Shown here: one piece after another, positions 46,413 through 49,430 of the stretch
Numbering within the stretch: position 1 is the first letter of the stretch
Layout of the letters: each line of letters starts with the position of its first letter
Origin: Escherichia coli
Lineage (GTDB): Bacteria; Pseudomonadota; Gammaproteobacteria; Enterobacterales; Enterobacteriaceae
NCBI RefSeq assembly: GCF_051903065.1
Contig: NZ_CP178438.1
DNA: 64,000 nt
Direction: 5' to 3' (one strand)
Notes under the pieces: generated by a model
Database searches by the model: none
The model's input: only the letters and a program-made list of their open reading frames with translations
What the model was told of the DNA's origin: nothing
Program-made: the position numbers and the translations under genes

Positions 46413-46439
46413 CAAATTGCGTTCCACGGATGGAAGACT

Positions 46440-48342
46440 ATGGCAGGGAAGTTTCGCTGCATTTTGCTGTTGATAGCAGGGCTGTTTGTATCATCTCTAA
46501 GTTATGCAGATAACACGGAGATCCCTTCTTATGAAGAAGGGATCTCGCTCTTTGATGTTGAAGCCACTCTGCAACCGGATGGGGTGCTCGACATCAAAGA
46601 GAACATTCATTTTCAGGCGCGAAATCAGCAGATTAAGCACGGATTTTATCGTGATTTACCACGACTATGGATGCAGCCTGATGGTGACGCGGCGCTGCTG
46701 AACTATCGCATTATTAGCGTCACCCGTGATGGTATTCCTGAACCCTGGCATCATGACTGGCATATCGGGTTAATGAGTATTGTCGTGGGCGATAAACAAC
46801 GTTTCTTGCCTCAAGGCGACTATCATTATCAAATTCATTATCAGGTTAAAAATGCTTTCCAGCGTGAGGGAGATTCAGATCTGTTAATCTGGAACGTGAC
46901 TGGTAACCACTGGCCGTTTGAAATCTATAAGACCCGATTTCCACTCAAGTTCCCTGATATCGCGGGTAATCCATTTAGCGAAATCGATCTCTTTACTGGA
47001 GAAGAGGGCGACACATATCGAAATGGCCGCATCCTTGAGGACGGAAGAATTGAATCCAGCGATCCGTTTTATCGTGAAGATTTCACGGTACTCTATACTC
47101 TACCGTTGGCCTCACTCGTTACTTAGCAATGCCCCGGCTCCGCAAACGACGAATATTTTCAGCCATCTTCTTTTACCCTCCACGTCATCGTTGTTAATTT
47201 GGTTTCCGTGTCTGTTCCTGGTTTGTGGATGGTTATATCTCTGGAAGCGCAGGCCGCAATTTACGCCGGTAGATGTGATTGAAACCGATGTCATTCCGCC
47301 AGATTACACGCCCGGCATGTTACGTCTCGATGCGAAGCTGGTTTACGACGATAAAGGTTTTTGTGCCGATATCGTAAATCTGATTGTGAAAGGAAAAATT
47401 CATCTGGAAGATCAGTCTGACAAGAACCAGCAAATCCTGATTCGTGTTAATGAAGGCGCGACCAGAAATAATGAGGTATTACTGCCCGCAGAGCAGTTAT
47501 TACTGGAAGCGTTATTTCGTAAAGGCGATAAGGTCGTTCTTACGGGGAGACGCAACAGAGTCTTACGCAGGGCATTTTTACGGATGCAGAAATTTTATCT
47601 GCCGCGTAAAAAGTCTTCGTTTTACCGGCCTGATACTTTTTTGCAATGGGGTGGACTGGCAATATTGGCGGTCATTCTTTACGGTAACCTGAGTCCTGTA
47701 GGCTGGGCAGGAATGAGTCTGGTGGGCGATATGTTTATTATGATCTGCTGGCTTCTTCCTTTTTTATTTTGTTCCCTTGAGCTTTTGTTTGCCCGCGATG
47801 ATGACAAGCCTTGCGTTAATCGTGTAATCATCACTTTGTTTTTACCGCTGATTTGTTCAGGCGTGGCCTTTTATTCTCTCTATATCAATGTCGGAGATGT
47901 ATTCTTTTACTGGTATATGCCAGCGGGTTATTTTAGCGCTGTTTTCCTGACCGGTTATCTCACTGGTATGGGGTATATTTTTCTGCCAAAGTTTACCCAA
48001 ACTGGGCAGCAACGTTATGCCCACGGTGAAGCTATCGTTAACTATCTTGCGCGTAAAGAGGCGGCAACACACAGTGGGCGGCGGCGGAAAGGGGAAACAC
48101 GGAAACTGGATTACGCGTTGCTAGGTTGGGCAGTCTCAGCAAACCTTGGAAGAGAATGGGTAGCACGTATCACCCCATCACTCACAGCGGCTGTTAGCGC
48201 CCCGGAAATTGCCCGTAGTGGCGTTTTGTTCTCATTACAGATGCACCTGAGTCTGGGGGCCAATACCAGTTTGTTGGGGCGAAGTTATTCCGGTGGTGGT
48301 GCTGGCGGCGGCGCGGGTGGCGGAGGCGGTGGTGGCTGGTAA
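46440..48342 (+). pseudogene. yciQ: DUF2207-type membrane protein YciQ, interrupted by an apparent +/-1 frameshift
   Basis: N-terminal 228 codons in frame 0 end at TAG 47124-47126; the remainder (to the Gly-rich C-terminus ...GGGAGGGAGGGGGGGW) continues in the +1 frame, which is open from 46900; the two frames overlap at 46900-47126. Confidence 0.6.
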
Positions 48343-48554
48343 TTAAGCTGATGATAATCGAAACAAGCTTTAACCATAAAGATAGTGTAGTATGTTGCGC
48401 CTCAAAGCCAGGCCAGTTAAAACGTCGAGTCGTTTACTTAAGGCCTGAAGAGTTCAAACAGACTTTACTATCAGTGAGTCAGATGTAAGTTCTGACTCAC
48501 TGTTGCACAAAAGCATATCAGACGCCTGGGAAGGCGACACCAAAAGGAAGCTCT

Positions 48555-49430
48555 ATGAGCGAAAAGCTACAGAAAGTGCTGGCGCGTGCCGGCCACGGTT
48601 CTCGCCGTGAAATCGAATCTATTATTGAAGCCGGTCGTGTGAGTGTTGATGGCAAAATTGCTAAACTCGGCGATCGCGTTGAAGTTACCCCTGGATTGAA
48701 AATCCGTATCGATGGTCACCTGATTTCGGTACGTGAGTCCGCTGAACAAATTTGTCGCGTTCTGGCCTATTACAAACCGGAAGGTGAGTTGTGTACCCGT
48801 AACGATCCGGAAGGACGTCCAACGGTGTTTGACCGTCTGCCAAAACTGCGTGGCGCACGCTGGATTGCCGTGGGTCGCTTGGACGTTAATACCTGTGGTC
48901 TGCTGCTGTTCACCACCGATGGTGAACTGGCAAACCGTTTAATGCACCCAAGCCGTGAAGTTGAACGTGAATATGCCGTGCGTGTATTTGGTCAGGTTGA
49001 CGACGCGAAACTGCGTGATTTGAGTCGTGGCGTGCAGTTGGAAGATGGTCCGGCAGCTTTTAAAACCATCAAGTTCAGCGGCGGCGAAGGGATCAACCAG
49101 TGGTACAACGTGACTCTGACCGAAGGCCGTAACCGTGAAGTTCGTCGTCTGTGGGAAGCGGTTGGTGTGCAGGTGAGCCGCCTGATCCGTGTTCGTTACG
49201 GTGATATCCCACTGCCAAAAGGTCTGCCACGCGGTGGCTGGACGGAGCTGGACCTCGCCCAGACTAACTATCTGCGCGAACTGGTGGAGCTACCGCCAGA
49301 AACCAGCTCTAAAGTCGCTGTAGAAAAAGACCGTCGTCGCATGAAGGCGAATCAGATTCGTCGTGCGGTGAAACGTCACAGTCAGGTGAGCGGCGGTCGT
49401 CGTTCTGGCGGACGTAATAATAACGGTTAA
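48555..49430 (+). CDS. rluB: 23S rRNA pseudouridine synthase RluB
   Basis: 291-aa ORF with S4 domain and Arg/Gly-rich C-terminal tail, recognised as RluB. Confidence 0.92.

Follow-up and report, generated by a model that had tools for sequence, protein, structure and literature searches.

The perfect inverted repeat between yciQ and rluB in this E. coli strain is the Escherichia orthologue of an RNA stem-loop that is conserved upstream of rluB in many Enterobacteriaceae. It occupies positions 48472-48502 on the + strand of the window, i.e. the whole 64-kb stretch of DNA that we analysed, and reads CAGTGAGTCAGA-TGTAAGT-TCTGACTCACTG. The first-pass annotation had described a perfect 12-bp stem with a 7-nt loop, 52 bp upstream of the rluB ATG, and both the sequence and our repeat search agree with it: the arms are 12 nt each, 100% complementary and 7 nt apart, and the stem ends 52 nt before the ATG at 48555. 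The yciQ stop codon is at 48342, about 130 nt 5' of the stem-loop, and both genes lie on the same strand as the hairpin. The features of the locus are the following.

46440..48342, + strand: yciQ (DUF2207), the upstream gene, frameshifted in this strain.
48385..48401, + strand: element A, GTG-TAGTAT-GTTGCGCC, in which a G+C-rich 8-mer follows a -10-like hexamer (48388-48393); conserved in most leaders.
48472..48502, + strand: the stem-loop, with 5' arm 48472-48483, loop 48484-48490 and 3' arm 48491-48502 (repeat search, folding and alignment).
48503..48518, + strand: the tail or spacer TTGCACAAAAGCATAT, single-stranded and homologous to the U-rich tail TTTTTGAAAGTATAC of relatives (alignment, T counts and a table of MazF sites).
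48519..48541, + strand: element B, CAGACGCCTGGGAAGGCGACACC, in which a GNRA tetraloop closes the 5-bp stem CGCCU/AGGCG; invariant in the leaders examined.
48544..48557, + strand: the Shine-Dalgarno sequence AAGGAAG and the rluB ATG (sequence, ORF and RefSeq naming).
48555..49430, + strand: rluB, 23S rRNA pseudouridine(2605) synthase, whose leader carries the hairpin.

Chance alone rarely gives such a repeat. First-order Markov shuffles of the 64-kb window lead us to expect, per window, 0.075 perfect inverted repeats with arms of 12 bp or longer and a loop of 3-12 nt, and seven are observed; the others that we inspected have A/T runs alongside and resemble ordinary terminators. As RNA the E. 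coli hairpin folds at about -20 kcal/mol (-19.5 to -20.1), with z = -4.2 against dinucleotide shuffles, and the entire yciQ-rluB spacer also folds better than its shuffles (z = -4.8). The hairpin is found once in the window and at one place per genome across 3976 E. coli genomes, which does not fit the many genome copies of a dispersed palindromic repeat such as REP/BIME or MITE ends.

The hairpin is new to annotation and to Rfam. An MG1655-derived RefSeq record, which confirmed the gene names, has no annotated feature across the stretch. Rfam 15 returned only noise for the E. coli locus at a permissive threshold (E >= 0.13, far under the gathering scores), and for eight related loci at the gathering threshold its sole match was the Trp leader (RF00513), located elsewhere. 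The literature that we searched on yciQ, yciL and the rluB promoter, UTR or sRNAs does not describe the hairpin. Several other candidates for this stretch were dropped: a 45-aa ORF (48351-48488) ending in the loop has its frame shifted by a 2-nt indel in MG1655; motifs for LexA, CsrA or alternative sigma factors, judged by eye, misfit or are unconserved across lineages; the stem is too short for an RNase III substrate; and a long-range helix of the minimum free energy fold (48381-48396/48457-48472) is without support in other lineages.

Conservation across Enterobacteriaceae had been named at first pass as one check of the hairpin, and its lack outside close relatives as part of what would refute it; we found the hairpin kept well outside the close relatives of E. 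coli, with compensatory changes in its stem, so that it withstands this test. It occurs at the equivalent site, 17-20 nt upstream of element B, in Leclercia, Enterobacter-like bacteria, Klebsiella, Raoultella, Salmonella and Scandinavium. When metagenomes were scanned with a degenerate element B pattern, E. coli excluded, 120 stretches were returned, from which we obtained about 100 distinct rluB leaders; nearly all of the "long" leaders have a hairpin ending 17-20 nt before element B. Leaders of Leclercia adecarboxylata, Raoultella ornithinolytica, Scandinavium goeteborgense and the K. pneumoniae-like and Enterobacter-like lineages were assigned by exact look-up of the RluB protein, and for Klebsiella sp. 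and Salmonella named records were the source. MAFFT, aligning on sequence alone, places the E. coli arms in register with the hairpins of 36 further leaders, all distinct. Among the relatives a typical hairpin is AGATCAGTGAGTTAAG-loop-CTAACTCGTTG-TTTTTGAAAGTATACCAGACGCC and that of E. coli is CTATCAGTGAGTCAGA-loop-TCTGACTCACTG-TTGCACAAAAGCATATCAGACGCC, and the spacer between the arms varies from 7 to 14 nt across the aligned leaders.

The stem covaries. We mapped the 12 stem pairs of E. coli onto a 40-sequence alignment, where 8 of the 12 pairs show changes on both sides and 86.5% of the cells are paired, many of the rows being closely related so that cell counts overstate the independent events. 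The covariation score is 0.285 vs 0.166 for column shuffles, none of 500 shuffles scored as high, and shifting the 3' partners by 1-3 columns lowers the score to 0.05-0.11. RNAalifold, run on 20 full-length leaders and unseeded by the E. coli structure, returns the hairpin as the only covarying helix, together with the invariant stem of element B and a 4-bp helix around the AUG. At least seven distinct combinations of arms exist: CAGTGAG/CTCGTTG, CAGCGAG/CTCGTTG, CAATGAG/CTCATTG, CATTGAG/CTCAGTG, CAGGGTG/C(T/G)CCCTG, AACAGGT/ACCTGTT and AATAAGT/ACTTGTT.

The changes also identify the strand on which the structure is kept. Over the ten well-aligned outer pairs we counted 310 Watson-Crick cells, 60 G.U cells on the + strand and 4 A.C cells. 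An A.C cell is a G.U pair on the opposite strand, and hence the 60 vs 4 indicates that the structure is selected in the rluB-sense RNA; this asymmetry rules out an antisense RNA and a DNA operator as what is being preserved. The three stem variants found within Escherichia, i.e. the Nissle/B2 type (C>T), Escherichia sp. MOD1-EC7003 (C>T) and E. whittamii (A>G), all turn a Watson-Crick pair into G.U on the + strand. The first-pass annotation had offered an RNA-level element in the rluB leader or a protein-binding palindrome. The former stands, given the rluB-sense strand, the position tied to rluB and the compensatory changes. The latter falls on the mismatch counts and on arms that covary without a fixed half-site. 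A palindromic operator for a dimeric regulator at the rluB promoter would suit the perfect 12-bp dyad upstream of a gene start in E. coli, but we give it almost no credence: the dyad is often broken in DNA while it is kept in the + strand RNA, the spacer between the arms is 7 to 14 nt, and every natural Escherichia variant breaks the DNA symmetry. Just as improbable is a chance repeat or a functionless remnant of a mobile element or insertion junction. The hairpin does lie 18 nt from the boundary of yciQ presence and absence, as a remnant might; the low expectation per window, the single copy in each genome and the compensatory changes conserved across genera all speak against it.

The hairpin belongs to the rluB module and not to yciQ, since its distance to element B and rluB is constant while the upstream stop codon and the upstream gene vary. 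The upstream stop codon is closest in E. coli, about 130 nt from the hairpin, and farthest in Klebsiella sp. (locus L005), at about 1200 nt. The slot between yciO and rluB is variable in loci L005, L007 and L011-L014, where it holds a DUF2207/yciQ gene, an OprB-family porin, EamA plus LysR genes, or nothing; the porin is in the Salmonella record, EamA and LysR are in a K. pneumoniae-like contig, and C. koseri has nothing. Close homologues of YciQ occur only in Escherichia, the next relatives are proteins of ~50-55% identity encoded at the yciO-rluB position in Klebsiella, and a scan of genome contigs with the YciQ C-terminus matched only at two Escherichia loci. We also observed near-identical RluB proteins (L013, L124 and L028, K. 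pneumoniae-like) with three different leader classes.

E. coli itself is dimorphic at this locus (window 46413-48520). The hairpin is present in 3976 of 5426 complete genomes (73%), always at the rluB locus, with 2639 of them sharing an identical 51-nt stretch and 1337 having a variant. A short haplotype with neither yciQ nor the hairpin is found in 1442 genomes, about 27%, and the two forms cover 5418 of the 5426. In strain N96, which has the short haplotype, yciO is followed by a 100-nt spacer and rluB, and homology to the window resumes at 48521 (GACGCCTGGG...). The short-haplotype spacer (L002 2435-2500) has an unrelated GC-rich hairpin, about 30 nt after the yciO stop, that is nearly identical to that of Citrobacter koseri. 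The yciO-rluB region was also seen on three E. coli records typed as plasmids, which could be mis-typed replicons or assembly artefacts.

The yciQ gene of the present strain is broken by a 7-bp tandem duplication of ACTCTAT relative to MG1655 (47089-47097), which leaves ORFs at 46440-47126 and 46918-48342. Only 3 of the 5426 complete E. coli genomes match this stretch at an identity of at least 99%. The 3' end of yciQ (48303-48332) encodes a Gly-rich tail (GGGAGGGAGGGGGGGW) made of imperfect 15-nt direct repeats TGGCGGCGGCGCGGG/TGGCGGAGGCGGTGG, and the length of this tail varies among Escherichia species.

The 230 nt before rluB, compared across loci, consist of two conserved blocks, elements A and B, flanking a variable middle. 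Element B has the form CAGACGCCTG(G/T)GAAGGCGACACC directly before the Shine-Dalgarno sequence and is invariant across the leader classes, in about 100 rluB leaders. The hairpin of element B lies 7 nt before the Shine-Dalgarno sequence, and its tetraloop is GGGA here and GUGA in many genera. It marks the point where the mosaic upstream sequence ends, and there the E. coli haplotypes and the other genera regain homology. Rfam has no match for it. It loosely resembles helix 93 of 23S rRNA, the RluB substrate. Around the rluB start codon (48551-48561) RNAalifold places an invariant mini-helix, GCUC-(A/U)AU-GAGC, in 20 of 20 leaders, which shows no covariation since nothing varies.

As far as its sequence can tell, element A is a candidate for the rluB promoter, with what would be a discriminator of the stringent type. 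It lies directly downstream of whichever gene precedes rluB in many genera. Its hexamer, TAnnAT or TATACT, takes the forms TAGTAT, TACCAT, TACTAT, TAATAT, TAAGAT, TAGAAT and TATACT, with a conserved discriminator of the CGGCC type. It has no recognisable -35 element and was not called by our consensus promoter scan. Genomic SELEX with RNA polymerase in vitro places a constitutive sigma-70 site between yciO and yciQ, outside the spacer. In favour of a promoter in these leaders, a K. pneumoniae-type leader instead has a clear GTTACA-17-TATAAT directly upstream of a related hairpin. The consensus scan found no promoter ending directly upstream of the E. coli hairpin. A -10-like TACTAT abutting the E. 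coli stem (48466-48471) was rejected as a promoter: it has no -35 element, a natural 3-nt deletion removes it, and its start would fall inside the 5' arm. On the opposite strand, the first part of rluB contains a promoter-like TCAACA-17-AATAAT (48649-48621), and Adams et al. (PMC7815308) list a Rho-dependent signal in antisense orientation at MG1655 1326939(-), about window 48642.

The available transcript data suggest that rluB transcripts run through the hairpin. Table 1 of Sauert et al. (PMC5001579) has the rluB mRNA cut by the toxin MazF at an ACA 49 nt before the AUG, an entry made by inspection of coverage and without primer-extension validation. The sole ACA near this distance is at 48507-48509, 4 nt 3' of the stem, and its A precedes that of the AUG by 48 nt. 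This site is partial evidence that the region is included in rluB transcripts. Neither the consensus scan nor a reading of the leaders found any promoter-like sequence in the interval of about 50 nt between hairpin and ATG, and hence transcription of rluB should cross the hairpin. The portion of the Term-seq list of Adams et al. 2021 (PMC7815308) that we searched has a terminator of rluB at MG1655 1327761 and a Rho-dependent, bicyclomycin-sensitive site inside yciQ at MG1655 1325258 (+), about window 46961. The latter suggests that upstream transcription often stops before rluB, which would then need a promoter downstream of the site, with element A as the conserved candidate. Among the 3' ends in that portion of the list none lies in the yciQ-rluB spacer, a negative of little weight as yciQ is weakly expressed. 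The published transcript data searched gave no 5' end at the hairpin either.

The first-pass annotation had called the repeat no obvious intrinsic terminator, and this holds for the E. coli copy but needs qualifying for its orthologues. The E. coli tail, TTGCACAA / TTGCACAAAAG, has 2 T in its first 8 nt and no T-run, and a terminator scan made no call. Like intrinsic terminators, the copy lies past the end of a gene and forms a stable stem-loop on the strand that is transcribed; it lacks a U-tract and a mapped 3' end among those listed, and for these reasons we do not file it as a terminator. The tails outside Escherichia contain 4-5 T in their first 8 nt (TTTTTGAA, TTTTAGAA, TTTCATAA), and some of these hairpins score as terminators. 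Only Escherichia and one other lineage have tails with 2 T in 8; in Escherichia the U-tract is absent and replaced by UUGCACAA.

The stem of E. coli is the strongest of the family, whose other members typically fold at -7 to -14 kcal/mol. We scored 40 hairpins with a terminator index of the d'Aubenton-Carafa type, used with modern energies: 9 are above zero and 31 are below it because their stems are A/U-rich with loops of 8-14 nt, and most are marginal. The mid-range index of E. coli (-3.3) is due to its strong stem. The simple terminator scan called none of the orthologous hairpins. RNAalifold on the 20 leaders and a check of upstream ORFs, which proved unconserved, detected no antiterminator, conserved leader peptide or sensor domain.

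Three further readings have to be weighed against these data. The hairpin could simply end the yciVOQ transcript, as a U-poor terminator or as an exonuclease stop after Rho termination, and have no role in rluB. It shares the strand of yciQ and lies 130 nt past its stop, E. coli genomes have either both yciQ and the hairpin or neither, and the short haplotype has a different, terminator-like hairpin about 30 nt after its yciO stop. We nevertheless hold this to be unlikely. The position of the hairpin follows element B and rluB (17-20 nt), whereas its distance to the upstream stop varies from 130 to ~1200 nt, and it is retained where unrelated genes (OprB, LysR) lie upstream. The E. coli copy is missing its U-tract, no spacer 3' end appears among those in the searched part of the Term-seq list (PMC7815308), and transcripts extend past the hairpin at the MazF site with no promoter between it and rluB. 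Alternatively, the hairpin could be the terminator of an sRNA of about 100-115 nt transcribed from element A, with rluB expressed by read-through and the sRNA lost or fused to the leader in E. coli. In most lineages a U-tailed hairpin follows, at 70-100 nt, a conserved -10-like element and its G+C-rich discriminator, an arrangement typical of enterobacterial sRNA genes. That reading is quite improbable in our view: no lineage examined has a match to an Rfam family, the literature searched has no sRNA at the rluB locus, the interval from A to the hairpin is poorly conserved and without covarying structure in RNAalifold, and the E. coli copy is without a U-tail, on which termination and Hfq binding depend. 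Finally, the hairpin could be a translational switch: the 3' arm, which is CUCAUUG or CUCGUUG in many lineages, would pair with the rluB start region CAAUGAG, and the 5' arm would act as a decoy that frees the AUG. This idea draws on the likeness in the alignments of the 5' arm consensus CA(A/G)UGAG to the invariant start region C(A/U)AUGAG. We regard it as very unlikely, as the complementarity is poor in E. coli (CUCACUG vs CUAUGAG) and Klebsiella (C(U/G)CCCUG), is lost when the stem covaries, and is not predicted by RNAalifold.

The reading that we prefer, and to which we would give about an even chance, is that the hairpin acts in cis within the leader and derives from a leaky terminator or attenuator controlling how far transcription reads through into rluB. 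It is an RNA stem-loop of the + strand in the transcript entering rluB, as part of the yciVOQ 3' UTR and/or of an rluB leader of about 150 nt. The U-rich tail after the stem in most non-Escherichia lineages suggests to us that the family consists of intrinsic terminators or attenuators that are weak and leaky and would limit the upstream transcription that reaches rluB. That transcription would come from the trpH-yciO-cargo operon and from the candidate promoter in element A. In Escherichia, where the U-tract has been replaced and the stem has become perfect and stronger, the copy probably terminates little. A pause site or stability boundary is then likelier than an efficient terminator, on the strength of these two changes. 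The E. coli hairpin would then serve mainly as a stable structural boundary, by causing a pause or by blocking exonucleases, and the A/U-rich zone immediately 3' of the stem would be open to cleavage. A role in processing or stability, as proposed at first pass, is possible.

The family has much in common with leaky intrinsic terminators and leader attenuators such as the trp leader (RF00513). It is a sense-strand stem-loop upstream of a gene, a U-rich tail directly follows the stem in most orthologues, the stem changes are compensatory, and the hairpin sits between upstream transcription and the start codon. Unlike them, the E. coli hairpin has no U-tract, and the stems of its relatives are A/U-rich with large loops and mostly marginal scores. 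In contrast to attenuators, the rluB leader showed in our search neither an alternative antiterminator nor a leader peptide, nor a domain for sensing a ligand or protein. The strong perfect stem of about -20 kcal/mol, and an A/U-rich single-stranded 3' flank that is cleaved at least by MazF, are shared with mRNA-stabilising or processing stem-loops, i.e. the ompA type and exonuclease-blocking 3' hairpins. A 5' protective hairpin of the ompA type, however, must occupy the very 5' end, and no such end is known for the E. coli hairpin. The predicted promoter of the K. pneumoniae-type leader would put the related hairpin at the 5' end, which is not the arrangement in E. coli.

Ribosome-related genes are known to use autoregulatory leaders, e.g. 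the ribosomal-protein operons and ksgA with its translational autocontrol. The rluB leader is like them in being a conserved, structured leader of a ribosome-biogenesis gene with a GNRA hairpin 7 nt before the Shine-Dalgarno sequence; it differs in that its binding by RluB or another protein is hypothetical only. We speculate, as a long shot, that element A as a stringent-type promoter, the covarying attenuator hairpin and the invariant GNRA hairpin of element B make up an undescribed regulatory leader of rluB, in which element B would partially mimic helix 93 of 23S rRNA, and RluB or another 50S-assembly factor could exert feedback on the expression of rluB.

The regulation of rluB is essentially undescribed, and we found no study of its leader or promoter in the literature searched. 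The hairpin is an uncharacterised conserved leader stem-loop of a familiar kind, and it explains an unannotated conserved spacer in the best-studied bacterium. If its function is weak termination alone, it is ordinary. The compensated hairpin, the adjoining invariant GNRA hairpin and the 73/27 split of unrelated leader haplotypes in E. coli together offer a testable way into the question of how transcription from upstream is kept away from a ribosome-biogenesis gene, or linked to it. If the reading as a regulatory leader is true, the dimorphism of long and short leaders would set differing levels of rluB expression.
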